DNA of 64,000 nt from Ignavibacteria bacterium (GCA_013287605.1 JABDDM010000002.1:1145-65144), one strand, 5' to 3'; shown: positions 16,458 through 60,996, counted from the first letter of the stretch. Numbers and translations are program-made. Notes: generated by a model from the sequence alone, not told the origin.

Positions 16458-16560
16458 GTGGATTCCCGCATGTGCGGGAATGACAATGACGGCGGTTGAA
16501 TGCGCGAAGCGCAGTAGAACGACGATCCTGTCCTTACCCGCGAAAGCGGGAATCCATCCC
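16458..16560. repeat. MITE-like palindromic repeat element, copy A (about 105 bp), with terminal 26-nt palindromic units
   Basis: GGATTCCCGCATGTGCGGGAATGACA … CCTTACCCGCGAAAGCGGGAATCCATCC. Each unit is itself a palindrome (CCCGC-N4-GCGGG) and the two units are inverted relative to each other. A near-identical element occurs at 45985-46086. Confidence 0.55.
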
Positions 16561-21427: not shown

Positions 21428-21471
21428 CTGTTCCCCGTTCCCCGTTCCCTGTTCCCTGTTCCCTGTTCCCC
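21428..21471. repeat. tandem array of the heptamer CTGTTCC(C/T), about 6-7 copies
   Basis: CTGTTCCCCGTTCCCCGTTCCCTGTTCCCTGTTCCCTGTTCCCC read directly, about 140 bp upstream of the ssb start. Confidence 0.8.
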
Positions 21472-21609
21472 GACTCGCAGAGTCTCGATTGTTGAAAATT
21501 CGCAGAAACGGTTACTTCTCTTTTCGAATTATATGTGACGTGTTCTCACGCTGGGAAGGGTATAACCTTCGGCGCAGACGATAACCAAATAGAATATTTA
21601 GTCGACGAT

Positions 21610-28956: not shown

Positions 28957-29008
28957 GAGTGACGGAGGTGCACTCGCTAGCGAAAGAGAACCTTAGGAAA
29001 CTACGACG

Positions 29009-29083
29009 TGGGCATTGCGGGGTTCGAACCTGCGACCTTTCGCGTGTGAGGCGAACGCTCTGGACCAACTGAGCTAAATGCCC
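29009..29083 (-). tRNA. tRNA-Val (anticodon CAC)
   Basis: The reverse complement folds as GGGCATT-TA-GCTC…GAGC-…TTCGC-CTCACAC-GCGAA…GCAGG-TTCGAAC-CCCGC-AATGCCC-A. D-arm, anticodon arm (CAC) and acceptor stem are perfect. There is one A·C mismatch in the T-stem. CCA is not encoded. Coordinates are ±2 nt. Confidence 0.8.
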
Positions 29084-41484: not shown

Positions 41485-42639
41485 ATGATCTATCTCGACA
41501 ATAGCGCTACTACCCCACTCGCACCAGAAGTGCGCGAGGCGATGGAGCCGTGGCTTGACAATGAATTCGGTAATGCCTCAAGCATCCATTCGATCGGACG
41601 AAGCGCGAAGGTTGCTCTTGAGGCCGCCCGCGAGATAATCGCGAATGCCATTGGCGCACGGCCGAGCGAAATTGTTTTTACTTCGAGTGGCACCGAAGCC
41701 AACAACGCTGCTATCGTCGGAAGCGTGATGCACGAAAAACTGAAGGGCACCGGATTTTCATCGCAGTCGATCATCACCTCAGCCGCCGAACATCATGCCG
41801 TGCTTGAGCCTGCGCAGTTTCTTGCGAAGCTTGGTGCAAGATCACTTGTATTGCCGGTTGATTCCGAAGGACGGTCTTTCCCAGAAGCAGTTGCCGGCTC
41901 GCTTGATGATTCTACGACGATCGTATCGATGATGCTCGTCAATAATGAGGTCGGGTCGATCAATCCGATTGCGGAGATCTCAGAAGTTGTCCATACAAAT
42001 TCTGGGGCGCTGATGCACACGGACGCGATACAAGCGCTCGGGAAGATGCCACTGAATGTCGGCGAATTGGGGGTTGATCTCGCTTCCTTTTCCGCTCACA
42101 AGATTCACGGACCGAAAGGCATTGGTGCACTCTTCGTAAAGAGCGGGACTGAACTCGAGCCGCTCGTACATGGTGGTGCACAAGAGCGAAACCGCCGTGG
42201 GGGCACGGAGCCGGTGGCGCTGGCTGTCGGCTTTGCACAAGCTGTGCGGCTGGCGGAGAAACGTCTCGCCGCGCAGCACTCGGAATTGGAAGCGCTCGGC
42301 CATTGGCTCCGAAGCGAACTCCTGGTGATCCCTGGTGTTACGATCAACTCACCGCAGGAACATTGGCTCCCTTCAATTATCAACTTTAGCTTTGCGCCGG
42401 AGTTACTTGACACGATTGATGGCGAAACGCTCATCATGCGATTCGATCTTGAAGGGATCGCAGTTTCGAACGGCGCTGCATGTACTTCCGGGACCGTTCA
42501 GCCTTCGCATGTGCTGCTTGCAATGGGCAAGGGAGATAAAGTCGCTGGAGCTTCAGTACGGATATCGCTCTCGCACGAAACGACGAAGACCGATCTCGAT
42601 CAATTCTTACAAGTACTTCGACGCATGATCAAACAATGA
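41485..42639 (+). CDS. iscS: cysteine desulfurase (class V aminotransferase, IscS/NifS type)
   Basis: MIYLDNSATTP…, SIHSIGR…, …SFSAHKIHGPKGIGALFVK (PLP lysine) and …GGTE… motifs. Start at the ATG giving MIYLDN. Confidence 0.85.
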   Translation: MIYLDNSATTPLAPEVREAMEPWLDNEFGNASSIHSIGRSAKVALEAAREIIANAIGARPSEIVFTSSGTEANNAAIVGSVMHEKLKGTGFSSQSIITSAAEHHAVLEPAQFLAKLGARSLVLPVDSEGRSFPEAVAGSLDDSTTIVSMMLVNNEVGSINPIAEISEVVHTNSGALMHTDAIQALGKMPLNVGELGVDLASFSAHKIHGPKGIGALFVKSGTELEPLVHGGAQERNRRGGTEPVALAVGFAQAVRLAEKRLAAQHSELEALGHWLRSELLVIPGVTINSPQEHWLPSIINFSFAPELLDTIDGETLIMRFDLEGIAVSNGAACTSGTVQPSHVLLAMGKGDKVAGASVRISLSHETTKTDLDQFLQVLRRMIKQ

Positions 42640-43591
42640 TCTCCCATGATCGCGGCGCAAGCTCAACATGTCGCTCTAGTGCATCAATCGCAATTCCATA
42701 ACGCAAGCCACGCGTGCTGACTGTGACGAATTCAATCCCGAAGATCTCCATCGTCTCCAACAAGATCAAGCTACCGGCAAGCAGTATATCCGCGCGACCC
42801 TTCAAGATCACAGGATAACGTCGCATCATTTCTTCGATACTCGTCACTGCCATTTCGTCGACGAACCGATTAACGGCATCCTTTCGAAGCACATGACCTT
42901 GCACTAGCGCCGCGTCGAACACCTTCAAACCAAGCTCCATTGCGGCAAGCGACGTCGGCGTACCCGCGACTGCCACGAACGGAATTCCCCTAAGAGGCTC
43001 CTTAACATTCTCGATAATTGCTTCACGAATATCCTGCCTGGCTGAAGTCACATCGTGAGGAGCTGGCTTGCCGAAATATCGTTCGGTCATCCTGACTGCA
43101 CCGACATCGATGCTCTGGCCTTGCAGGAACAGGCCATTCGCTCCTATCGCGATCTCCGTGCTTCCGCCACCAACGTCGAGCACCGCGACCTTCTCCTCAC
43201 TCATCTTCATGCCTGCCAGCGCCCCGCGATACGTCAGCTCTGCTTCTTTTGATCCTGAGATGATCTGGATATCGATACCAAGATCATGCTTCGCGCGATA
43301 CAAGATGTTGCCGCGATTCTGGGCATCTCGCAGCGCACTTGTTCCTACTGCGGCGATCTCATTGACACTAAGTGTCGAGAGCGCGAGAAGATGCTCTTTG
43401 ATCACCTTCACAAAACGATCGTAGGCAGCATCCGAAATGATGTGGGTTTTGTCGACGCCTTCGCCGAGTCTGGCAATCGCATGTCGATCAGCGATTACTT
43501 TCGCGGATGCCTCGCTTTGAGATTCAAGGACCAGACACAAGGCAGTGTTCGTGCCGATATCGAACGCGGCTACGCGATACTTATCCGGCAT
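42629..43591 (-). CDS. ppx: Ppx/GppA-family exopolyphosphatase/phosphohydrolase
   Basis: N-terminus …VAAFDIGTNTALCLV plus a second actin-like ATPase motif (…VLDVGGGSTE…). Confidence 0.85.
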   Translation of the reverse strand: MPDKYRVAAFDIGTNTALCLVLESQSEASAKVIADRHAIARLGEGVDKTHIISDAAYDRFVKVIKEHLLALSTLSVNEIAAVGTSALRDAQNRGNILYRAKHDLGIDIQIISGSKEAELTYRGALAGMKMSEEKVAVLDVGGGSTEIAIGANGLFLQGQSIDVGAVRMTERYFGKPAPHDVTSARQDIREAIIENVKEPLRGIPFVAVAGTPTSLAAMELGLKVFDAALVQGHVLRKDAVNRFVDEMAVTSIEEMMRRYPVILKGRADILLAGSLILLETMEIFGIEFVTVSTRGLRYGIAIDALERHVELAPRSWEIIV

Positions 43592-44456
43592 ACTTCATGA
43601 GCAGCGCCGACCACTCGTGCTCGCGAAGCTCTTCGACCAGTTGATAACCGAGCGAGCGATACTCCTCAGCAACTTCAGCAGAATCGTAGACCAATAAACC
43701 CGAAAGAATCAGCGTTGAACCGGGAAGCGAGTGAGATGCGATCTCTTCTGAAGATTCGATCAGGATGTTGCGATGAATGTTGGCGAGGATGAGATCAAAT
43801 TTATCCTCGCTATCAATCGTGCTGGCAAGATTGCCGCAAAAGACTGTGAATCGATCGGCCGCAAGACCATTCAGATCCCGATTCTCTTCAACATTTTCGA
43901 CGGCCCAATCGTCTGTGTCGATCCCGATCGCTCGCGCTGCGCCGCGCATGAGCGCGTAGATAGCCAGCACACCTGAGCCGGTGCCAACATCAAGCACTGA
44001 CATTTTTTTGACGTTAACCTTCTCGATCGCTCGCAAGCAAAGCCTCGTCGTCTCATGATGACCCGTCCCGAAACTCATCTTCGGATCGATCACGATCAAA
44101 TACTTTGAATCGAGATGCTCGGCCTCCTCTTCCTTCCACGATGGAGCGATGACAAGATCGTCCGTGACTCGCACAGGCTCAATGCCGGCCTCCCACTCTG
44201 CATTCCAGTCTTTCTCTTCGATCGGCTCAACGGACCGAAGTTCAACTGGCGATGGAAGCATCGAGACAAACTCGGAGAGCTCATCCTGCAGTTCTGGAGT
44301 CCACTCGCCGATCGGAATGAAATATCGGACGTCACCTTCCTGCGTCTCTTCGAGGCCTTCGAGTGTCGTCTGTGTCAGCATGAACCCTTGCAGCGAGTCC
44401 TGCACGTCGAGCGGCACACGAAAGGTTAAGGCGAGAGTGCGAGGAGCTTTTGTCAC
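43581..44456 (-). CDS. prmA: ribosomal protein L11 methyltransferase
   Basis: …VIDPKMSFGTGHHETTRLC… and SAM motif VLDVGTGSGVLAI. Confidence 0.85.
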   Translation of the reverse strand: MTKAPRTLALTFRVPLDVQDSLQGFMLTQTTLEGLEETQEGDVRYFIPIGEWTPELQDELSEFVSMLPSPVELRSVEPIEEKDWNAEWEAGIEPVRVTDDLVIAPSWKEEEAEHLDSKYLIVIDPKMSFGTGHHETTRLCLRAIEKVNVKKMSVLDVGTGSGVLAIYALMRGAARAIGIDTDDWAVENVEENRDLNGLAADRFTVFCGNLASTIDSEDKFDLILANIHRNILIESSEEIASHSLPGSTLILSGLLVYDSAEVAEEYRSLGYQLVEELREHEWSALLMKYAG

Positions 44457-45577
44457 AGTGATCGGATGGAATTTGGCAGGCGTTCGTAGATCAGATATAG
44501 TAAAAGTCGGCCGACCTCATCGAGTGTTTTATCACTAACGTTGTTCGGAAGATCATGCGTCGTATGCCAATACTTGCGGTCCGGATCCTGGGTATGCGCG
44601 CCTACCAAATCACCGTCGATAATATCAACCGCAGGGATTCCGCCCTGAATGAATGGAAGATGATCGTCTTCGATCGTTGGACCCGCAATTTGTTTGAAAG
44701 TTGTGAGTCCCAGATCCTGCGCTGCTCTCCAGATCTCCGCAGTGAATTGCGGTGCTGACCTTTGCGAATTTCCTTCCGGCTTGAATTCCGCCTTTTTGTC
44801 ACCCACCATATCAAGCAGGATGGCGAAGCGTGGATTGTAGTCTGCGGGCTTCGTCTTCACAAAAAATTTCGCGCCGAGAAAATACTTATTGAGTTCGTCG
44901 ATCGAGGGCTTGCCATAATCTTCACCATCATCGAAGAGCAGATCAACGCCGATCGGCGGTGGATTGTCTTTCATTGCCTTTGCGAGTTCGAGCATGACGG
45001 CAGTCCCCGAGCCACCATCATTGGCGGCCGGCACAGGCTTATTTCGATTCGTTGAATCCTTATCCTCATCAGCCCACGGACGAGAATCCCAGTGGGTCAG
45101 GATCAGGATCCGATCTGTCGCCGAGGGATTGAATGACGCGACGACATTCGTCAAGTTCAAAGTCGAGCCGTCGTAGCCGGTTTCGGTAAATGGCTGGAGG
45201 CTAACGGCGCTGGTGTACTTCGCGAGCTCCGTTTGGATATATTTCAGCTCATGGTCATGAGCTGCACTGTTCGGCACTCGTGGACCAAAGCTAACCTGCT
45301 GCACAACCGACTTCATCGCGGCTGCACCATCGAACGGAGGAGCCGTCTTCGCGACGAGCGGCGGCAGCGCCTTGGCTGGCCCATCGGCCGGTGGATTATC
45401 CGTCTTCTTAGAGCACGCGACTGCAACAAAAGCGAGAAGGGCAAGCGGAGGGAAAAGTAGCTTCCGCGGTAGTCGATTCAAAAATTGCATCAAAAAATAG
45501 TACGCTGAAATTCGTCGTGAAAGGTGTGTAACAAAACGAGAGTAGGCAAGTTCTTTTATATGTCTCCGTTTGAGCAC
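44453..45577 (-). CDS. M28-family peptidase (aminopeptidase or glutaminyl-cyclase-like), secreted
   Basis: Signal peptide. Zinc-ligand context …ILTHWDSRPWADED… and …DDGEDYG…. Confidence 0.75.
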   Translation of the reverse strand: MLKRRHIKELAYSRFVTHLSRRISAYYFLMQFLNRLPRKLLFPPLALLAFVAVACSKKTDNPPADGPAKALPPLVAKTAPPFDGAAAMKSVVQQVSFGPRVPNSAAHDHELKYIQTELAKYTSAVSLQPFTETGYDGSTLNLTNVVASFNPSATDRILILTHWDSRPWADEDKDSTNRNKPVPAANDGGSGTAVMLELAKAMKDNPPPIGVDLLFDDGEDYGKPSIDELNKYFLGAKFFVKTKPADYNPRFAILLDMVGDKKAEFKPEGNSQRSAPQFTAEIWRAAQDLGLTTFKQIAGPTIEDDHLPFIQGGIPAVDIIDGDLVGAHTQDPDRKYWHTTHDLPNNVSDKTLDEVGRLLLYLIYERLPNSIRSL

Positions 45578-45696
45578 GGGACAATTAGCTTGGAAGCAAT
45601 GCTCTCTTGAGTGACCTTCCCGGTGAATAGAAGCACATCTGAAGATCTCGAGTAGCCTGGATGAACGATAACTTCATTCGGGCTCTCTCGTTTTAT

Positions 45697-45815
45697 GGGG
45701 TCAGGGAACAGGGCACGGTAAACAGGGAACAGATAGGGATTGAAGGCGGGAGAGTGCAAAAACTTCGATCATCCCTCCCGCTGTTCCCTGTTCCCATTCC
45801 CTGTTCCCTGAGCCC
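45697..45815. repeat. imperfect palindrome about 115 bp long whose arms are arrays of GGGAACAG / CTGTTCCC
   Basis: CAGGGAACAGGGCACGGTAAACAGGGAACAG … (central GCGGGAG…CTCCCGC) … CTGTTCCCTGTTCCCATTCCCTGTTCCCTG. It uses the same heptamer as the array at 21428-21471. Confidence 0.7.
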
Positions 45816-45984
45816 GTGTGTAAATGCGTTATTCATAATCCAAGATTCAACCTTCGATTTTGTGCTGAAAACGGCAATTCGCGATTGCCAAGCTTGGTGT
45901 GTGTGAAAACTTTATTCATAATTCCCCTTCGTATAGAAAACTAGTGGGGTGTTTTTGAGATCGACCCACATCCTAGACTCTGGG

Positions 45985-46086
45985 GATGGATTCCCGCATT
46001 CGCGGGAATGACAAGATGGAGACTCTGTGGCGCTTCGCGCGTTACTCCCTGTTGATGTCATTCCCGCACAGGCGGGAATCCATGGG
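45985..46086. repeat. MITE-like palindromic repeat element, copy B
   Basis: GGATTCCCGCATTCGCGGGAATGACA … TGTCATTCCCGCACAGGCGGGAATCCA. The interior shares GCGCTTCGCGC with copy A in inverted orientation. Confidence 0.55.
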
Positions 46087-46460
46087 GAAGGAAGGATGCA
46101 ACTCGCGTGGGTCGGGCGTCTCGCCCGACCTAGGGTGGCGCGGGGTACTCTCTCTTGTTGCGACCTACCGGGAGTCGGGCGAGAGGCCCGACCGCTGAAG
46201 AGCGGAGAATTTGCCTACGCTACATAAAACGCATAATTATCCACCATCGTTCCCTTGGGAGAACGAATACCTCACGAGAATGAGCAGCTTTATGAACCAG
46301 ATCAATCTACAACCCTCGGAACTCACAATAGGGACACGATGTGTTCTTTTGCCAGCTTTCGACCCTGAGCGCAGGTTCGTCCCGAAACCCAACTCTCTCA
46401 CCGTCCATTGCACAAGATCACAAGTATTTGAGATGCCCAAAAACGTTATAATGAACTGGC

Positions 46461-48359
46461 ATGCCTGAATTTAGTCCGACTGAAGAGCAACGAAAAATTC
46501 TTGAGCACGATATGAGGCGTCATGCCAGGGTTAAAGCGGGCCCCGGCACAGGCAAAAGTGCTACGCTTGTTGCACTTCTCGACAAGTTGATCACTGAGGG
46601 CGCGACTGGAAGAATGAAGCTGTTGACATTCACTCGCGCTGCAACGGGCGAACTGCTTAAGAAGGTGTCGAGCCATCCCGCCGCCGCAGCTGAGCATCCG
46701 AGCACGATCCACTCCTTTGCAATATCAATCTTGCTTGCGAATCCTGGCGCTGGCAACTTCCCTGAGCCATTACGCATCGCGGATGACTGGGAATTTAACA
46801 ACGTGGTGCGACTAACACTCGCAAAGCGGCTTGGAATAAAGCAGAAACAACTCGACCGCCTAGTTAAAGAACTTGCCGCGAATTGGGAAGCGCTAAGGCC
46901 CCAAGATGATGCTGGCATCAGTGACGAGCTACGAAGCAGGTTTTTAGGAGCTTGGAATGAGCATCGCCTAATTTTTGGCTATGTGTTATTGCAAGAGTTG
47001 CCCTACGCCTTGAGGCACGCATTAGTAAATTATCCCGAGCTGCGAGGTATCGACTTCGATTTACTGATAGTCGATGAGTATCAAGACCTGAACTCATGTG
47101 ACCTCGATGTTATTCATTTGCTCTCACAACGAGGATGCTCGATTATTGGAGCAGGAGATGACGACCAATCGATATACCACTTTCGAAAAGCAGCGCCGGA
47201 AGGAATTCGAAGGTTTCTGACCGATTATCCTGGCGGAGAAGATTATGCGCTATCGATAACACAGCGTTGCGGAAGCCAAATCATTGAATGGGCCAACTAC
47301 GTTATCAGTGGTGATCCCGACCGGCCCCAACGAAATCCTCTCACTCCGGTTGCAGGATCACCGAGGGGGGAGTGCAAGCTTTTATCTTTTCGGAATCAGA
47401 GTGAAGAGATCGAGGGTGTAGCCGAACTCATCGAAAACCTTACTGAACAAGACGTAAAAGCATCTGACATCTTGGTCCTCCTCAGAAGTGATTATTACGG
47501 TATTTTTAGTAGACCTCTCAAAGGGGAGCTGAAGATAAGAAATATTCCGTGTTCTGAGGAAGACGCTGTTGAAAGGATGTTGCAAGAGCCCGACAATCGG
47601 CGCATTATGGAAGTTTTGAGGCTGGTTGAGAACGAAGAAGATTCCATCGCGTGGGCTTCACTTCTCAAGCTCAGCAAAAGAATTGGCATGTCATTTTTTG
47701 AGTATGTTTATGGTATCGCCAAGTCGAGGCGTGCGACTTTTGGAAAGACGCTCTTAGAGACCTACGGCTTTGGCTTCCCTGGAGCGCCATCCGCGTCGGC
47801 TTCGAAGGCAAAAGAATTTATCCGCCAAACGCTGAATTGGCTTAATACAAGAAGGGCTGACTTGCAGGAGCAAGAGCACTGGGGGGCGTCAATTTTGGAA
47901 CTCCCCGATGGGCTTGTGATCCCTCAGCCAAGCAAGGAATTTCAGGATTTGCTTCTCTCGCTCGATGAAATAGCAGACCCAGGCCAGAACTTGGGAAGGT
48001 ATTTGAGTCAGGTCATTCCTTTGGGAAAGGACATGATGCAGGCTACATGCGAAGGCGTGCGAATCATGAGCATGGGGGGCGCTAAGGGACTTACCGTCAG
48101 AGCCACGATAATGATGGCCTTAGAGGAAGGAATCGTACCTCGCCCAGAAGCCGATCTTGGGGAAGAGAGACGACTACTGTACGTTGCAATGACAAGGTCG
48201 AAGGAGTTCCTCTACGGAACATGGGCAAGAACGCGAACCGGCCCTACCGCGAGATCAGGGGAGGGCCAAGTTGGCGGCATACGTAACTACACACACTTTC
48301 TACAAGGCGGGCCTGTTGATTCAGAAGACGGGAAACGGTATCTCGCCACTCTGATTTAG
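46461..48359 (+). CDS. UvrD/Rep-family superfamily 1 DNA helicase (compact, 632 aa)
   Basis: Walker A (AGPGTGKSATL), motif II (LLIVDEYQDLN), motif III-like (IIGAGDDDQSIY), motif VI-like (LLYVAMTRSKEFLY). Lower GC than its surroundings. Confidence 0.8.
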   Translation: MPEFSPTEEQRKILEHDMRRHARVKAGPGTGKSATLVALLDKLITEGATGRMKLLTFTRAATGELLKKVSSHPAAAAEHPSTIHSFAISILLANPGAGNFPEPLRIADDWEFNNVVRLTLAKRLGIKQKQLDRLVKELAANWEALRPQDDAGISDELRSRFLGAWNEHRLIFGYVLLQELPYALRHALVNYPELRGIDFDLLIVDEYQDLNSCDLDVIHLLSQRGCSIIGAGDDDQSIYHFRKAAPEGIRRFLTDYPGGEDYALSITQRCGSQIIEWANYVISGDPDRPQRNPLTPVAGSPRGECKLLSFRNQSEEIEGVAELIENLTEQDVKASDILVLLRSDYYGIFSRPLKGELKIRNIPCSEEDAVERMLQEPDNRRIMEVLRLVENEEDSIAWASLLKLSKRIGMSFFEYVYGIAKSRRATFGKTLLETYGFGFPGAPSASASKAKEFIRQTLNWLNTRRADLQEQEHWGASILELPDGLVIPQPSKEFQDLLLSLDEIADPGQNLGRYLSQVIPLGKDMMQATCEGVRIMSMGGAKGLTVRATIMMALEEGIVPRPEADLGEERRLLYVAMTRSKEFLYGTWARTRTGPTARSGEGQVGGIRNYTHFLQGGPVDSEDGKRYLATLI

Positions 48360-48382
48360 TATTCATCCCGCACATTTCATCA

Positions 48383-50029
48383 ATGTCAACTCACAAGCAA
48401 CGAATGCGCAGGTTTGGCACCTTGGCTCCCCCTCCTAAAGGTACCAAAGAACGCGATGCGCTAATGAAAACAGTTGACGCTGCGCTCGCGATGGATCCTG
48501 AATTTAAGAAGATTCTCAAACGAAAACGTAAAGCGGCTTTCGGAAAATGGGAAATGCAGCTTGCAAACGGAGCTGGCTTGCAATTGGATGGGCATCTGAG
48601 ACACTTCTTAACGGAATTCAACCACAGAATGTCCGAATTCGGATTTGACTCAATGCCGGCTTCGTTTAATGTTCTAGAAGCCTTCTTTAAGTATGATGGC
48701 AACATCTTCTATTTCGAGTTGCTACCTGAAGTCGATCATTTGTTTTCATTTCTCGACTATTGCGACTATCTCACCTCGCCCGATAACAACATTGAAGTTG
48801 CCTCGAGCCTGGAATATTTTGCAGAAGGAATGATCTACTCGTTCAATATCCTGAACGATCCTAAAGACATTCAATTCTCGACCTCTTCGAAAAAGTCTTT
48901 CGCCGTGGGCGGTGTATCCATGATTCGGCGTGGAAGCGAGGTATCAATTCTCCTTCTGGGAGGGGAAAAGATAGACACGACAAACGACCCAGCAGAACTT
49001 CTTGATCCAGATTTGGGGGATGTGAAAGTCACACCGGGACACGAGGAGATCAAGCCCTCACCCGACCGTATACGAGAGACAGTGAAGCTTCTTAATCAGG
49101 ATGAGTTTTGGCAGTGTCTCATCCTAGTCAGGCTCGATATTAATACGATGACCATTGATTCACGGTATGTATTGCATGACCAAGGGGATGCGTTTCAGAT
49201 TACCACTGATGACATCTCTTCTTTCTCTCACGAGATCGGTAAAGATGGTCTGTTTAAGACCCCTTCTGTAAAGGAACTGTACGAGAAATTCTCAGAAAGA
49301 ACGATTGGCTATGACGCGCTTTTTCAGGTAGCAGCAAGCTCGATACATCTTTTAAGGTATTTTGTGGACTATAATGAGTCACTCACCTACGAGCAGCATG
49401 TGACGTCGTACGGAGACTCCAAACCAAAGCCTGAGATATACCGTCAAGACCGCGTTGACCCAATGCTCAAGATCAGAGAGAGAACTGTAGCTGTAATGGA
49501 GCGACGCAACGTGTTTGCCTCTGATAGTACGATCTTTGCAACTAATGATTTCAAGATTGAAAGGTCTGGCTATTGGAAAAAACTATCTTATAATGCGATT
49601 GGTAAGGATAAGCATGGCAAAAGCATTCACGGACGTACCTGGGTAGAAAGCACAATGACTTGGAATGAGTCGCCGCCTAGTCCACTTCGCATTTACACGA
49701 ATTTGAATCAACCAATTTCCAGTGGCCAATCAGGTATCATCTATGTTATGCGCAACGCGTCGCATGGGAAAAACATCTTCAAAGTGGGTATGACCACCCG
49801 CGATCCAGAAACGAGGGCCTTAGAATTGTCTTCCACGACAGGTTCACCCGATAGATTCCTTGTTGCTCAAGAATGGGATGTACAGGATTGCGTGATCGCG
49901 GAGAAGCGTATTCACAAAGAGCTTGATGCTTATAGAATTAATACCAACCGTGAGTTTTTCAAGATCGAATACAATGCGCTTATAAAAATCATTGAGAAGT
50001 GCGTTTTTGAAATCAATCGCCTAGATTAA
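48383..50029 (+). CDS. protein with an unassigned roughly 430 aa N-terminal region and a C-terminal T5orf172/MUG113 (GIY-YIG-like) domain
   Basis: The C-terminus GIIYVMRNASHGKNIFKVGMTTRDPETRALELSSTTGSPDRFLVAQEWDVQDCVIAEKRIHKELDAYRINTNREFFKIEY matches the T5orf172 pattern (YVM…KIGxT…RxxEL…P…EFF). It lies 24 nt downstream of the helicase on the same strand. Confidence 0.65.
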   Translation: MSTHKQRMRRFGTLAPPPKGTKERDALMKTVDAALAMDPEFKKILKRKRKAAFGKWEMQLANGAGLQLDGHLRHFLTEFNHRMSEFGFDSMPASFNVLEAFFKYDGNIFYFELLPEVDHLFSFLDYCDYLTSPDNNIEVASSLEYFAEGMIYSFNILNDPKDIQFSTSSKKSFAVGGVSMIRRGSEVSILLLGGEKIDTTNDPAELLDPDLGDVKVTPGHEEIKPSPDRIRETVKLLNQDEFWQCLILVRLDINTMTIDSRYVLHDQGDAFQITTDDISSFSHEIGKDGLFKTPSVKELYEKFSERTIGYDALFQVAASSIHLLRYFVDYNESLTYEQHVTSYGDSKPKPEIYRQDRVDPMLKIRERTVAVMERRNVFASDSTIFATNDFKIERSGYWKKLSYNAIGKDKHGKSIHGRTWVESTMTWNESPPSPLRIYTNLNQPISSGQSGIIYVMRNASHGKNIFKVGMTTRDPETRALELSSTTGSPDRFLVAQEWDVQDCVIAEKRIHKELDAYRINTNREFFKIEYNALIKIIEKCVFEINRLD

Positions 50030-50174
50030 AGCACCTCTTTTCCGTGGTTGTGGAACTCCTGAGCCCGTTGAATGGACTCGAGCTTAACGAGATCCAATTA
50101 ATTTTGCAACGTCAGTAGTGCGCCTGCTTAACCGTTGCCCTTACATAGGTGTCCCCTCTTGCGCTGAGGCCCCC

Positions 50175-51134
50175 CTACTCCTCTACATCCTCCGAATAAA
50201 CATCATCTGGTGTCACCTCGGTGGGTGGGACGAGGATGCGGAGGAAGCGTTTGAAGGCGCGCTGGCCTACGAGGTCGTGTGATTCGCCGAAGACCATGAT
50301 GAGGTTGCGGATCATGCGGAGAATGATCGTGCGGTCTTCTGCAGGGTCGAGGAAGGCGTCGTTATATTTTAACTTGGATGCATCCAGAAAGCGTTTGATG
50401 TCACGCTTTCGTAGCACGACACCCCCATTAAATGCGTCTACGAACAGCGGCTCTTCGATGGCGCCATCATAGCGAATGAGGAAATGTCCGGGTGCGCTTG
50501 AACCTGAGAACGGAAGGCCGACGCGCATTTTTGCGATCAGGAGATATGCAACTGCGAGCGAAATCGGGATGCCCATCTTGCGATCGATCACGCGATTCAA
50601 ATAGCTGTTGTCGGGTTCGAGGAACGCGCCCTGGTTGCCGCGAAACTTTTGTTTTTCGAAAAAGAAATCGTTGGTGATCGCAAGTATCTCAAGCGGTGAG
50701 TGAACTCCGGCGATTCGGTCGCGGAGCATTCCGGCCAGCGCCGAAAGTTCGATTCGATAATGCTCGATGTTGAGCCGTGGGTAACCGTAGCGTGCTACGA
50801 GGAACGCCCCATCTTCGAGCGCTCGTGGGTCACCCCATTCGAGCCGCTTATTGAGCACACAAAATTCTTTCGCAAGCCGCTCTTCGTTCAACTCCCGGAC
50901 AAGCATCGAAGCCCGATCGCCCGCGAGTTCGTCATCGGTGAGATCGACAAAATCGAGAAGTTCACCCAGGATCGCATCGCCCTTGCTTCGGAGCCGTTCG
51001 ATCACTGTTTCTGAAATGCGTGTGTCGGGGTCGTCGAGCAGGCTGAATAACGGCTGTAGCTCCCTGTCGAGTGTCGGAGCGTCGACCTCGAGTTTGGTGA
51101 GTGTATGAACCGGATCCTGTCGCGACAAAGCCAT
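50175..51134 (-). CDS. transglutaminase-like/SirB1 (UPF0162) family protein
   Basis: …RKMGIPISLAVAYLLIAKMRVGLPFSGSSAPGHFLIRY… is the hallmark of the SirB1 N-terminal transglutaminase-like family. Start chosen at the internal ATG (MALSRQDP). Confidence 0.6.
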   Translation of the reverse strand: MALSRQDPVHTLTKLEVDAPTLDRELQPLFSLLDDPDTRISETVIERLRSKGDAILGELLDFVDLTDDELAGDRASMLVRELNEERLAKEFCVLNKRLEWGDPRALEDGAFLVARYGYPRLNIEHYRIELSALAGMLRDRIAGVHSPLEILAITNDFFFEKQKFRGNQGAFLEPDNSYLNRVIDRKMGIPISLAVAYLLIAKMRVGLPFSGSSAPGHFLIRYDGAIEEPLFVDAFNGGVVLRKRDIKRFLDASKLKYNDAFLDPAEDRTIILRMIRNLIMVFGESHDLVGQRAFKRFLRILVPPTEVTPDDVYSEDVEE

Positions 51135-51212
51135 AGTGTGTGGGACATGAGAGCGCAACGACTCAACACCCGCGAGGCAGAAATACAATCCTGCTCCCGT
51201 ACTAAAATATTT

Positions 51213-52199
51213 TTACGCCAGCGGATCGCTATTCATGAAGCTTTCCTCGCCTTCGTCCAGACGCGTTAGTTCGGCGGAGAGATATTCGAAGGCTTCCTGT
51301 GGCGAATCGGAAAAGTGGATCAGGTTAAGATCCTGCCGAGAGATCATGCCGTAATATTCGAGCATTTCCAGATCGATGATCTTTTGCCAAAAGCTTGAGC
51401 CATACACGACGATCGGCATTTTCTTTCTGATCTTACCCGTCTGAATGAGCGTCAGACATTCGAAGAGCTCGTCCATCGTGCCGAAACCACCGGGAAAAAT
51501 CACAAGCGCTTTTCCCAGATACGCAAACCAGAATTTGCGCATGAAGAAGTAGTGGAATTCGAAATTTAGTTCGTCGGTGATAAACGAGTTCGGCATTTGC
51601 TCGAACGGAAGTGCGATGTTAAAGCCGATCGTCTTTCCACCCGCAAGCGAAGCCCCGCGATTTGCGGCTTCCATAATGCCGGGTCCACCGCCAGAACAGA
51701 TCACATAGCGCTGACGGAATGAGTGCGTCTTGATCGACTCCACATTCACGTATGGGATCTGCTCGCGTATCTGCGCCGCTGCAACCTGACCCTTTGCGAT
51801 CTGCGCTTTCTCATAGTTCTGCGCCGCCTGCGTGATCGACCACTCGGTCAGCAGCCGTGCGAGCTCGGTAGCTTCCTCGTAATACCGCGCGAGCTCTTTG
51901 TGCATTTGTGCTCTGCGAAGTGCTTCCTCTAATTCGGATACGACTTCCTTCGAAAGCGAATTCGTTTGCTCTGCAAGCACTTTCGCATTTTTTAGCTGGC
52001 GAAGTTCTGCTTCGGCTTCTTCCGGTGAATGAATTCGTGCACTGCCGAAGAAGACGATCGTGTCCTTGACACGTGCATGAGCAAGCCGCGAGCGCGGCTC
52101 GACGTATTCACTCAGGATTCGAACGATGCGTGCTTCAGGACTTGTGAGAAATTTTTCGTTGAGGTACGCCTTGAGTGCGCGTTGTTTGACTGATGGCAA
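51213..52199 (-). CDS. LOG-family protein (TIGR00730 Rossmann-fold; cytokinin riboside 5'-monophosphate phosphoribohydrolase-like) with an N-terminal extension of about 150 aa
   Basis: …ICSGGGPGIMEAANRGA…PGGFGTMDELFE… LOG-family motifs (GGGxGxMG, PGGxGTxxE). Confidence 0.8.
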   Translation of the reverse strand: MPSVKQRALKAYLNEKFLTSPEARIVRILSEYVEPRSRLAHARVKDTIVFFGSARIHSPEEAEAELRQLKNAKVLAEQTNSLSKEVVSELEEALRRAQMHKELARYYEEATELARLLTEWSITQAAQNYEKAQIAKGQVAAAQIREQIPYVNVESIKTHSFRQRYVICSGGGPGIMEAANRGASLAGGKTIGFNIALPFEQMPNSFITDELNFEFHYFFMRKFWFAYLGKALVIFPGGFGTMDELFECLTLIQTGKIRKKMPIVVYGSSFWQKIIDLEMLEYYGMISRQDLNLIHFSDSPQEAFEYLSAELTRLDEGEESFMNSDPLA

Positions 52200-52226
52200 T
52201 GGAGTTGGTGTTTTTGGTGATTGATG

Positions 52227-52958
52227 TTAACTCATGACGGACCGACCGCCGTCCACAATGATTGTTTGTCCGGTGATGTATGGTGCATCGAATGCGAGGA
52301 ACTGGACGACACGAGCAATATCATGTACGGTGCCATATCGCTTCATCGGGATACGCTCGCGAGCGATCCCCATCCGTTCTTCACTTTCGTCTTCAAGCTG
52401 GATCGCGCCCGGCGCGACGGCATTGACCGTAATACACTGCTCGGCGAGTTCGCGTGCTAAAGTTTTTGTCAGTGTGATCAACGCCGATTTCGACACATTG
52501 TAATCGATCCGTTCTTTCCAGATCTGCACTCCGCCAAGCGATGCAAGATTTACGATCGCGCTCCCGGAGTTCATTTGCTTTGCAGCCGCTCGTACCATTG
52601 CGAATGGGGCAACGAGATTTAGCTCCAAGGCTTCACGAAGGTCATTTGGCTCCAGGTTGTCCAACTTCCTTCTTGCAGGAAGGACTCCTGAATTATTGAT
52701 CAATACGTCGATGCCGCCGGCCAGTTTAACAAATCGCTCAACGATTGCATCTGCCTCCGACCGAACGTCGCCTTGCAATAAATGCGCTGCTTCCGCACCG
52801 GCCTGCAAGCATCGCTCGGCAAACGCCTTTGCCTCGTCAGCAGGTGTACGGTAATAATTGAGCCCGAGCACGACGCCCTTCTCGGCCAATTCCAACGCAA
52901 TACCGCCGCCCAATCGGTGGACGCCTCCAGTGATCAGCACGCGGGAGGATTTTATCAT
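52227..52958 (-). CDS. SDR-family oxidoreductase
   Basis: VLITGGVHRLGGGIALEL, NNSG, S…Y…K triad spacing. Confidence 0.8.
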   Translation of the reverse strand: MIKSSRVLITGGVHRLGGGIALELAEKGVVLGLNYYRTPADEAKAFAERCLQAGAEAAHLLQGDVRSEADAIVERFVKLAGGIDVLINNSGVLPARRKLDNLEPNDLREALELNLVAPFAMVRAAAKQMNSGSAIVNLASLGGVQIWKERIDYNVSKSALITLTKTLARELAEQCITVNAVAPGAIQLEDESEERMGIARERIPMKRYGTVHDIARVVQFLAFDAPYITGQTIIVDGGRSVMS

Positions 52959-58947: not shown

Positions 58948-60996
58948 TTATTCCTCAGCGATAACCCAGCCTTCAGCGAATTCGGATTCTACGAGGCCGT
59001 CGATAAAGCGGCTGGGTTTGGAGAGTACGATTCCAGCTTCGCGGTCGTAGAGGTTGGTTGGATACGTGATGATGAGATGTTCTTTGGCGCGAGTGCTTGC
59101 GACATACATGAGTCGTCGTTCTTCTTCGAGCGAATCGGGATCATTCGCCGAAGCGATACTTGGAAAACGGCCGTCCAGGCAATTTGTGATGATAACGGTG
59201 TTCCATTCAAGTCCTTTTGCGGAATGAATGGTCGAGAGCGTTAGGATCTCGTCTTCTTTCGGCGCGTCTTCGGAGCCGGCAAGCGATTCTGTTGGAGGTT
59301 CGAGTGAAAGATCGCTCAAGAGCGATTGCATCGATTGATAGCGATCGGTGATGAGTTGGAACGTCTCAAGATCTTTTTCGCGCTTCTGGTAGTCGTCGTA
59401 CTTCCTGCGCAAGAGTGGTTTGTAGAACTGGATCAGTTGTTCGGTTTTCTCGGCCGGCAGTGAATCTTCGCGACTCGCCATCTTGAGCGCCCCGAAAAGC
59501 TCCATCACTTTTTGCGGAATTCCCATATCGGGCGCGGGCTCCATGCCCGTTACAACCTCATCCGTGAAGCGCTTGAGGGAGACTTTGTCATTGAGGATGT
59601 CCTGCACGATTTTCTCAGCCGATCTCGGTCCGACGCCATCCTGCAACAAGAGAATTCGATACCAGCTCACCGCGTCTTTCGGATTATGAATGACGCGCAG
59701 CATCGCAGTAAGATCCTTGATATGAGCGGTTTCGATGAACTTCATCCCGCCGAATTTCTGGAAGGGAATGTTGGCGCGCTGCAACTCGAGTTCAAGATCG
59801 AACGACATGTAGCCCGAGCGAAACAGCACGGCAATATCCTCAAGCTTTGCTCCCTGCTCGCGGAATTCCAATATCTTCTCTACGACGTACACCGACTGTT
59901 GGTGCTCGTTCTCCGCGCAGACGACTTGCGGCAGTTCATCGGAAGTCATACGAGAGAAAAGCGTCTTTTCATAGCGCTCGCTCGCGAGTGAGATAATACG
60001 ATTTGTCAGCGCAAGAATCGGCTGTGTCGAGCGGTAGTTCTCTTCCAGACGAATGATCCGAGCACCCGGAAACAGATCAGGAAATTCAAAAATGTTCTTC
60101 ACATCAGCACCGCGAAAGCGATAGATCGATTGCGCATCGTCGCCAACGACCATTACGTTCGCTTGTGTAGGTTCGCGACTTGACGAAAGCCGCTCGATGA
60201 CGCGCGCCTGCAATCGGTTGACATCCTGGTACTCATCGACCATGATATACTTATACTTCTTCGTGACGGCCGCGCGAACTTCGGAGCTCGATTCGAGCAG
60301 GACGACGAGATTGGTGATGAGGTCGTCGTAGTCCATCACATTCGCTCGGCGCTTGTAGTCGTCGTAGCGTGTGAGAAGTCGAGTGATGTTCTCAGTCTCT
60401 TCGATAAAGTGGGGATAATCCTGCTCGATGACTTCATCGAGCGACGCCATCCGGCTAAGCTGCAGCGAATGCATCGCGAGGAGCGTACCCTTTCGCGGGA
60501 AGCGCTTCTTACTGGCCGCGAGACCAAGCTGTGTGCGCAGAAGATTGATCACATCTTCCGAATCGCCCTGATCGAGTATAGAGAAATTCTGATTGTAGCC
60601 GATGACGGGCGAATACTTGCGAAGCGTAAGATTCGCGAACGCATGGAAGGTACCGCCGGAAACGTCCTCGGCTTTAGTGTCATGCAGGAGCATTGCTGCA
60701 CGACGCAGCATCTCTTTTGCGGAGCGGCGAGTAAACGTAAGCAAGAGAATGCTCTTCGGATCGACGCCCATTTCCACGAGACGGGCAACGCGATAGGTCA
60801 GCGTGCGAGTTTTACCGGTACCTGCTCCTGCAATGACTAGCGCTGGACCATCGACATGCCGCACCGCATCAAGCTGTCCCGGATTTAACTCGCGCTCGTA
60901 GTTGACCTTGAACCGCGATTCGTCAACGCGTGAAAGATCCGTCGTTCGTTTGAGAACGAATCGCTTCGGTTGAACGGCTGGACTATTCTCACCCAT
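58948..60996 (-). CDS. uvrD: ATP-dependent DNA helicase, UvrD/PcrA family
   Basis: …LNPGQLDAVRHVDGPALVIAGAGTGKTRTL… (motifs Ia/I), …IMVDEYQDVN… (II), …VGDDAQSIYRFRGA… (III), …TIHSAKGLEW…, …YVASTRAKEHL… (VI). Confidence 0.85.
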   Translation of the reverse strand: MGENSPAVQPKRFVLKRTTDLSRVDESRFKVNYERELNPGQLDAVRHVDGPALVIAGAGTGKTRTLTYRVARLVEMGVDPKSILLLTFTRRSAKEMLRRAAMLLHDTKAEDVSGGTFHAFANLTLRKYSPVIGYNQNFSILDQGDSEDVINLLRTQLGLAASKKRFPRKGTLLAMHSLQLSRMASLDEVIEQDYPHFIEETENITRLLTRYDDYKRRANVMDYDDLITNLVVLLESSSEVRAAVTKKYKYIMVDEYQDVNRLQARVIERLSSSREPTQANVMVVGDDAQSIYRFRGADVKNIFEFPDLFPGARIIRLEENYRSTQPILALTNRIISLASERYEKTLFSRMTSDELPQVVCAENEHQQSVYVVEKILEFREQGAKLEDIAVLFRSGYMSFDLELELQRANIPFQKFGGMKFIETAHIKDLTAMLRVIHNPKDAVSWYRILLLQDGVGPRSAEKIVQDILNDKVSLKRFTDEVVTGMEPAPDMGIPQKVMELFGALKMASREDSLPAEKTEQLIQFYKPLLRRKYDDYQKREKDLETFQLITDRYQSMQSLLSDLSLEPPTESLAGSEDAPKEDEILTLSTIHSAKGLEWNTVIITNCLDGRFPSIASANDPDSLEEERRLMYVASTRAKEHLIITYPTNLYDREAGIVLSKPSRFIDGLVESEFAEGWVIAEE

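Follow-up and report, generated by a model that had tools for sequence, protein, structure and literature searches.

A 4.5 kb accessory islet of an Ignavibacteria bacterium probably holds two independent genes: a solitary UvrD-like helicase and a T5orf172 nuclease-domain protein

Helicases and nucleases meet in several of the known anti-phage systems. Gabija comprises GajA, which is an OLD-type ATPase/TOPRIM nuclease, and GajB, which is a UvrD-like helicase; Hachiman comprises HamA (DUF1837) and the superfamily 2 (SF2) helicase HamB; and Nhi-like systems consist of a single helicase–nuclease fusion protein. The subject of this analysis is a pair of adjacent genes in a stretch of 64,000 nucleotides (nt) from an Ignavibacteria bacterium (GCA_013287605.1, JABDDM010000002.1:1145-65144), the whole of which is called the window, with positions counted from its first letter. 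A first-pass annotation of the window had proposed that a compact UvrD-like helicase (gene 1) and the T5orf172/MUG113 nuclease-domain protein encoded next to it (gene 2) form a two-gene defence module, which would be a new helicase–nuclease defence architecture. The comparative data do not support such a system. The best explanation, to which we give a probability of roughly 0.6, is a 4.5 kb accessory islet with two evolutionarily independent genes and no conserved helicase–nuclease system; gene 2 most likely acts alone, and the helicase is a solitary gene.

The closest characterised system to gene 2 is SNIPE (formerly PD-lambda-1; Saxton et al., Nature 2026), a single-protein defence nuclease of E. 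coli that has a transmembrane anchor, DUF4041 and a C-terminal GIY-YIG nuclease, and that cleaves phage DNA as it is being injected (PMC13190303). Among the homologues of SNIPE, about 66% possess a transmembrane segment, and PH-like domains are found in others (PMC13190303). Domains of the T5orf172 type are active as nucleases in ICP1 Odn (PMC8263062) as well as in SNIPE (PMC13190303), and T5orf172 genes occur in phages as free-standing homing endonucleases (PMC10448857).

The islet and its two genes are laid out as follows:
45695..50184, no strand: 4.49 kb islet, specific to the strain, that shows as an insertion or replacement in comparison with a close relative (blastn against locus L170)
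46461..48359, plus strand: gene 1, compact UvrD/Rep-type superfamily 1 (SF1) helicase of 632 amino acids (aa), one of a tight ~635-aa family that occurs solitary
48360..48382, plus strand: intergenic spacer of 23 nt, read directly from the sequence
48383..49702, plus strand: N-terminal ~440-aa domain of gene 2, fold family unassigned, proposed sensor or regulatory module
49733..50002, plus strand: C-terminal T5orf172/MUG113 (GIY-YIG superfamily) nuclease domain of gene 2, residues 451-540

Each of the two genes normally occurs alone in other genomes; thus, they are probably independent rather than a two-gene system. The comparison was made from both sides, with 30 full-length gene 2 loci from a one-genome-per-species collection covering diverse phyla (26 of them with at least 2 kb of upstream sequence), and with 84 helicase loci (80 of them after removal of duplicates, 52 with downstream sequence of 500 bp or more). 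Searches with the window helicase by tblastn and blastp found an adjoining homologue in 0 of the 30 gene 2 loci, the lone exception of any kind being a weak UvrD match at one locus (L001), on the opposite strand and ~1.2 kb away from the gene 2 homologue. The reverse search, tblastn with gene 2 against the 84 helicase loci, gave zero matches, i.e., gene 2 is present in 0 of the 80 non-duplicate loci. When neighbours were clustered all against all, no family was common to more than three of the 30 gene 2 loci, and no conserved neighbour emerged from the 84 helicase loci; the former result is consistent with a single-gene function of gene 2, as far as gene neighbourhoods can indicate. A Pfam scan found a UvrD domain in 1 of 117 neighbours of gene 2 homologues. 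The nearest homologues, checked singly, were also without the partner (P0002 and P0007 for gene 2, the closest at 44% identity; P0104 for the helicase, at 65%), and the two families differ in their conservation, the top matches lying at 55-65% for the helicase and at about 44% or less for gene 2. The pair was thus not found adjacent elsewhere in this material, an outcome that the first-pass annotation had itself named as fatal to its two-gene module. A conserved partner of either gene was accordingly rejected; a permissive search among the genes 5' of the helicase homologues yielded only similarity of restriction-modification (R-M) specificity or methylase genes between three loci.

The C-terminal domain of gene 2 (residues 451-540) matches PF10544 (T5orf172) with 62.4 bits and PF13455 (MUG113) with 55.7 bits. 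These matches, which lie above the curated thresholds, and the GIY-YIG fold place the protein in the T5orf172/GIY-YIG superfamily. Residues 1-440 have no match in Pfam or NCBIfam, and the first-pass annotation had read both parts of the protein in the same way. The family conserves G451, Y454, K467, G469, R478, E507, H511, R518 and E524, which we infer to map onto the GIY-YIG catalytic positions. In an AlphaFold2 model built with 94 homologues, which is confident (predicted local distance difference test 87.1, predicted template-modelling score 0.82), a helical bundle is accompanied by globular domains rich in beta structure. A transmembrane segment is not predicted, the maximum 19-residue Kyte–Doolittle mean being 1.08. 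For the N-terminal domain (the N-domain), Foldseek on the PDB returned nothing at E<=0.001 and a profile search of PDB sequences nothing below E 0.2; judged by the model, the domain appears to be without a convincing structural relative in the PDB.

With a profile of the N-domain, at least 588 cluster representatives (clustered at 50% identity) are found, 301 with E<=1e-30, and almost all have a length of 520-600 aa. Thus, the single-gene architecture is stable, and what varies is the effector: among 90 N-domain proteins scanned with Pfam, T5orf172 stands at the end of 66, HNH of nine and DUF4365 of one, a TIR domain stands in front of one, and the remaining proteins have no Pfam match. The replacement of T5orf172 by HNH or DUF4365, and the single N-terminal TIR, can be seen in P0330, P0289 and the nine HNH-bearing members (alignment A7). 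A further variant lies on the Methylorubrum extorquens AM1 megaplasmid (NC_012811.1; L169, 4893-6227), where a 444-aa open reading frame (ORF), matching the N-domain only (query residues 60-431), precedes a 156-aa ORF that lies in a different frame, and the PLSDB table lists no gene; this is a pseudogene with a frameshift or else a variant reduced to the N-domain.

Full-length homologues of gene 2 number about 100, at 28-45% identity, in Pseudomonadota, Bacillota, Bacteroidota, Spirochaetia, Planctomycetota, Chloroflexota, candidate phyla and others. Distant, full-length homologues also occur on plasmids, where they are placed in typical defence islands: in Agrobacterium vitis, an AAA-ATPase + helicase pair and an anti-phage dGTPase on one side and radical SAM, exonuclease, WYL and TIR genes on the other; in A. 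tumefaciens, TIR, HEPN and integrase genes; and in Sinorhizobium, integrase, VapBC and HEPN genes. A phage origin of gene 2 was considered and rejected: none of 50,697 phage records contains the full-length protein, the ~100-aa domain alone giving matches, and the two full-length matches in 2.9 million viral contigs are both prophage-derived.

Gene 2 would, on this evidence, be a stand-alone, single-protein sensor–effector that has no need of the helicase. The ~430-aa N-domain would detect a sign of infection or keep the enzyme in an inactive state, and the C-terminal GIY-YIG-type nuclease would then cut DNA. What suggests this is the stable single-gene architecture together with the TIR fusion and the defence-island neighbours, the finding that the nuclease at the C-terminus is exchanged among three unrelated folds, and the documented nuclease activity of T5orf172-type domains (PMC8263062, PMC13190303). 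Such a layout, an orphan-fold domain with swappable nucleases and now and then a TIR fusion, characterises immune sensors that consist of a single protein. It is tentatively proposed, at somewhat less than even odds, that the N-domain family (at least 588 clusters) consists of stand-alone immune proteins, in which a sensor of unrecognised fold is joined to interchangeable nucleases and sometimes to TIR, making up a single-gene anti-phage system. The family is widespread, uncharacterised and outside Pfam coverage; it would be an unnamed single-gene defence candidate and, with a single gene of 1.6 kb, can be cloned easily.

The likeness of gene 2 to SNIPE lies in the plan of the protein. Both are single-gene, with a C-terminal nuclease of ~100 aa of the GIY-YIG/T5orf172 type, which in gene 2 has its conserved residues, preceded by extended N-terminal and middle parts that are not catalytic; both families vary outside the nuclease domain; and the PADLOC models for PD-Lambda-1 match gene 2 at 1e-9 over residues 449-539. 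This match, however, is limited to the nuclease domain (profile positions 354-448 of 496), and gene 2 has neither a DUF4041 match (Pfam, E<=0.1) nor an N-terminal membrane anchor, as its low hydropathy indicates. Furthermore, the nuclease is the most conserved part of SNIPE, whereas in the gene 2 family it is the part that is swapped (T5orf172, HNH, DUF4365). Gene 2 is therefore not a member of SNIPE and would not share its spatial logic: because its N-domain is a different, strongly conserved globular unit of ~430 aa, membrane-based spatial discrimination of self from non-self is unlikely for it. By analogy, gene 2 may work like a sensor-tethered GIY-YIG nuclease, with a trigger and a self/non-self logic that would differ from those of SNIPE because the protein is predicted to be soluble and is without DUF4041. 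If this is true, the class of GIY-YIG defence nucleases represented by SNIPE extends to a soluble form, in which self and non-self are told apart otherwise.

Two further groups share the nuclease domain with gene 2. The phage T5orf172 homing endonucleases and ICP1 Odn have a nuclease domain of the same family and demonstrate that such domains can act as targeted DNA nucleases. In these phage proteins, which are shorter, the domain is coupled to DNA-binding modules, and its ~100 aa are all that they have in common with gene 2. Gene 2 is found on bacterial chromosomes and plasmids, and its N-domain of 430 aa is unrelated. The best PADLOC match of gene 2 is PDC-S57 (1.3e-21, over the T5orf172 domain), itself a computational candidate only. 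This match joins residues 449-541 of 548 in gene 2 to positions 4-94 of a 212-position model, which implies that the PDC-S57 proteins are much shorter and without the N-domain; identity of gene 2 with PDC-S57 was rejected on this ground.

Gene 1 is the SF1 helicase that had been described, with PF00580 at 108.8 bits, PF13361 at 85.9 bits and also PF13245. Its SF1 motifs are complete (AGPGTGKS, DEYQD, GDDDQSIY, VAMTRSK) and invariant in the family alignment, and the UvrD N- and C-terminal domains, Walker A, DEYQD and motifs III and VI make it a member of the UvrD/Rep/PcrA group (SF1A). Pfam detects no nuclease domain fused to it. A sequence search of the PDB returns PcrA, UvrD and Rep at ~1e-27. 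Nevertheless, as had been supposed, it is not the housekeeping copy: the NCBIfam equivalog models for PcrA, UvrD and Rep score it at 121-133 bits, compared with cut-offs of 911-1144 (for PcrA, 133 versus 911), and the syntenic site in relatives has no such gene. A second gene of the group, also pointed out in the first-pass annotation, is real and scores far higher with the same PcrA model:
58948..60996, minus strand: housekeeping-type UvrD/PcrA gene (context), 682 aa, 426 bits with the PcrA model
A UvrD of 685 aa is found in the syntenic region of the relative GCA_038240295.1.

The helicase has more than 3000 homologues, of which the top 120 are 55-65% identical to it; the family is tight, at ~635 aa, and is essentially absent from the 2.9 million viral contigs. 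Its neighbours include Type I HsdM/HsdS, Eco57I/Type IIG and Type III Res genes, resolvases, integrases, AbiJ, AIPR and IstB. One homologue lies directly 3' of a Type III Mod/Res pair within an element that carries ParB and integrases; others lie 3' of Type I HsdS or HsdM genes, or of an SF2 helicase with an NOV_C domain; and others again adjoin a DUF433/DUF5615 pair or GMT-wHTH, DUF5131 and DUF3800 genes. The gene 3' of the helicase homologues is mostly convergent. It was also observed that at nine of these loci (L083-L085, L090, L094, L124, L154, L159, L161) the homologue is co-oriented with, and at the 3' end of, a restriction system, of the Type III Mod/Res, Type I HsdM/HsdS, Type IIG/Eco57I-like or SF2 + NOV_C kind, with some gaps of 5-85 nt. 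This position may reflect a recurring accessory role, and it provides a second, weaker lead from the locus. From these contexts we conclude that gene 1 is, as gene neighbourhoods suggest, an accessory helicase that stands alone in defence islands and integrative elements. The families of both proteins are thus at home in defence islands and mobile elements, among R-M, integrase and Abi genes for the helicase and TIR, HEPN, VapBC and integrase genes for gene 2, which fits the defence context proposed in the first-pass annotation.

Among known two-gene systems, Gabija comes nearest to the arrangement in the window: the helicase matches many PADLOC GajB profiles over its full length (best 7e-38, 128 bits) and adjoins a nuclease-domain gene. 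Identity with Gabija was nevertheless rejected, as there is no GajA, gene 2 having no ATPase, TOPRIM or GajA match (Pfam, PADLOC). Moreover, the generic PcrA, UvrD and Rep models score the helicase about as high as the GajB profiles do; no GajB chain is among its PDB sequence matches at 1e-5; it is only 18% identical to the helicase of the Gabija-like AAA-ATPase + helicase pair on the A. vitis plasmid; and its family is solitary. All of the best 25 of 54 PADLOC families on the helicase are GajB or RTasHel. From Hachiman and Nhi-like systems the locus appears to differ in having no DUF1837 and no fused nuclease domain (Pfam), and in that the helicase is of the SF1 UvrD type, not SF2. Among these PADLOC matches the pair corresponds to no named system, as had been anticipated: it has GajB-type helicase matches without GajA, and matches to PDC-S57 and PD-Lambda-1 that are confined to one domain.

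The two genes lie within a discrete segment that sets the window apart from a close relative. In a blastn comparison with the close relative GCA_038240295.1 (L170), window 41487-45694 corresponds to L170 15680-11476 and window 50185-52203 to L170 10947-8935; opposite window 45695-50184 the relative has 528 bp only, which makes the segment a real insertion. The flanking SirB1-like gene has a homologue 88% identical there, and the gene order in the relative is NadA, LOG, Transglut_core2, a 109-aa orphan ORF, Peptidase_M28, PrmA and Ppx. For one of the flanking genes, the named homologues are divided among metagenome-assembled genomes of Bacteroidota, Ignavibacteriota and Acidobacteriaceae. The description of the locus as an accessory islet between core genes is borne out, and the islet contains two genes only. 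Neither helicase nor gene 2 is present in two more distant relatives (L172 and L174). The orphan ORF (L170 11138-11467), which sits at the islet site, is without a Pfam match and without a counterpart in the window; this intergenic site seems to be a hotspot of variable cargo. The islet had been called GC-poor as a whole, which holds for gene 2 (GC 0.447), but not for the helicase (0.502), which equals the window mean (0.507); the flanking core genes have 0.517-0.547.

Both ORFs were found at exactly the coordinates and lengths given in the first-pass annotation, in the same orientation (gene 1, 46461..48359, 632 aa; gene 2, 48383..50029, 548 aa, the stop codon ending at 50029). The spacer between them, given there as 24 nt, is 23 nt (48360-48382). 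N-terminal conservation in the helicase family begins at Met1, which supports the start codon of gene 1. The database call for gene 2 (P0001) has 541 aa and begins at Met8 (the difference being window 48383-48403), and its homologues conserve M-x-x-H-x-x-R-M from the first ATG; since conservation in the family alignment sets in at Met1, the start at 48383, giving 548 aa, is to be preferred. A scan of the spacer gave no terminator-like or promoter-like site, and with a spacing of 23 nt the two genes are likely to be co-transcribed, as far as their layout indicates. A promoter scan 5' of the helicase called no site of the sigma-70 type; a TATAAT at 46447-46452, 8 nt ahead of the helicase ATG, was given no weight.

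The layout is also what can be said for an anti-phage system in which the two genes function together, as a combination that is rare or was assembled recently; the helicase would load on, or unwind, foreign DNA and pass it on to the nuclease. The genes are co-oriented, 23 nt apart, with no terminator between them, and lie inside one insertion; helicase–nuclease pairing is known from Gabija; and the helicase family often sits directly 3' of Type I, IIG and III R-M and SF2 + NOV_C systems, so that a promiscuous "helper helicase" is conceivable. A reading in which the solitary ~635-aa family plugs as such a helper into various nuclease systems (R-M elsewhere, gene 2 here) is nevertheless less likely. 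Co-occurrence is zero in 30 + 80 loci and among the nearest homologues, UvrD neighbours of gene 2 homologues are as rare as described, the single-gene architecture of the gene 2 family is fixed in at least 588 clusters, and the two genes differ in GC; we consider the two-gene system quite unlikely. The main other rival holds that gene 2 is a selfish gene, like a homing endonuclease or part of a mobile element, that the helicase is a replication or maintenance gene left over from an integrative element, and that the islet is decayed mobile DNA without benefit to the host. Free-standing T5orf172 homing endonucleases are established in phages (PMC10448857), the gene 2 family is patchy, solitary and often placed between housekeeping genes, the helicase is found in elements bearing integrases and ParB, and dispersed repeats border the islet. 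However, the phage genomes share only the ~100-aa domain, full-length gene 2 being essentially absent from them; the large conserved N-domain has no recognisable DNA-binding module; nuclease swapping among three families and a TIR fusion are typical of immune sensors rather than of homing enzymes; and both ORFs are intact, with conserved catalytic motifs. A selfish or homing role is thus unlikely. That the pair is a core function of DNA repair or recombination, i.e., a second UvrD with an accessory nuclease, draws on the intact UvrD-family motifs and on the repair enzymes UvrC and SLX1 among the GIY-YIG nucleases. It is largely refuted, and very improbable, given that the syntenic site lacks the pair in the close relative GCA_038240295.1 and in L172 and L174, that a housekeeping-type UvrD/PcrA lies elsewhere in the window, that the equivalog models for UvrD, PcrA and Rep score the helicase far under their cut-offs, and that the genes are not together elsewhere; a conserved repair locus had been one of the outcomes foreseen in the first-pass annotation, and it is not what was found.

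Against the reading of two independent genes in an accessory islet there are several points. The co-orientation, the 23-nt gap and the lack of a detectable terminator or promoter between the genes fit an operon and allow coupling in one genome. Many of the comparison contigs are short, and neighbouring ORFs were defined by a simple longest-ORF heuristic. The link of the gene 2 family to defence islands is a tentative one that comes from a few annotated plasmids, and many gene 2 homologues are flanked, as in the window, by housekeeping genes (MFS, PGK, TGT, GidA and others). As to the route of arrival, the borders of the islet have no integrase, transfer RNA (tRNA) gene or flanking direct repeats, and the sole tRNA found in the window lies at 29008-29083. 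The reading of two independent genes accommodates the layout if the helicase is a second cargo gene, whose family travels with defence islands and integrative elements and is frequently found 3' of R-M operons; co-transcription here would then follow merely from packing, or from transfer together. Tight packing of unrelated defence genes is common. Thus, close spacing and a plausible pairing of domains are insufficient to call a system.

The DNA 5' of the helicase is non-coding for 883 bp (45578-46460), up to the M28 peptidase gene. The first-pass annotation had remarked on its richness in repeats; this gap indeed contains three hairpin-forming palindromic repeats, which sit within the inserted segment and do not seem specific to the locus:
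45695..45815, no strand: long imperfect hairpin of GGGAACA-type repeats, dispersed and like repetitive extragenic palindromic (REP) elements (inverted repeats I2, I4, I5, I7, I8)
45986..46083, no strand: palindromic REP-like element with two ATTCCCGC-N4-GCGGGAAT units as inverted arms (I1)
46110..46193, no strand: third palindromic element, GTCGGGCG-N4-GCCCGAC units (I3, 20-nt arms, 95% complementarity)

The GGGAACA heptamer repeats recur at window 21431-21472. The arms of I1 are 28 nt long with 89% complementarity; its units have a second copy pair at window 16462-16553 and a 29-nt match at 96.6% identity elsewhere in the L170 genome. A motif search of the window found GTCGGGCG at 46110-46193 only. 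Because two of the three motifs recur in the window, and one of them in L170, the repeats look like dispersed REP-like elements and not like features of the locus; they resemble REP elements, or miniature inverted-repeat transposable elements, of the source lineage. They were also considered as a non-coding RNA or as attachment (att) sites of a system and rejected in these roles, since two of the three motifs recur and Rfam returned, for the hairpin at 45695..45815, sub-threshold microRNA models only, which were taken as chance.

Beside the islet lies a non-coding block of ~110-150 bp (within window 45544-45694), 5' of the M28-prmA-ppx genes, the M28 peptidase gene being at 44453-45577 on the minus strand. 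It is 90-92% identical to GCA_038240295.1, compared with ~70% for the adjoining coding DNA. An Rfam search of the block gave no match and its fold is unremarkable (z -0.73); at its distal end is a hairpin (45654-45684), several stem positions of which differ between the two genomes. The block may be a promoter, a 5' untranslated region or a regulatory element. On the other side of the islet, between the NadA and LOG-family genes, a short-chain dehydrogenase gene (52227-52958, minus strand) is absent from L170 and present in L172 and L174, and is thus a second small presence/absence difference near the islet.

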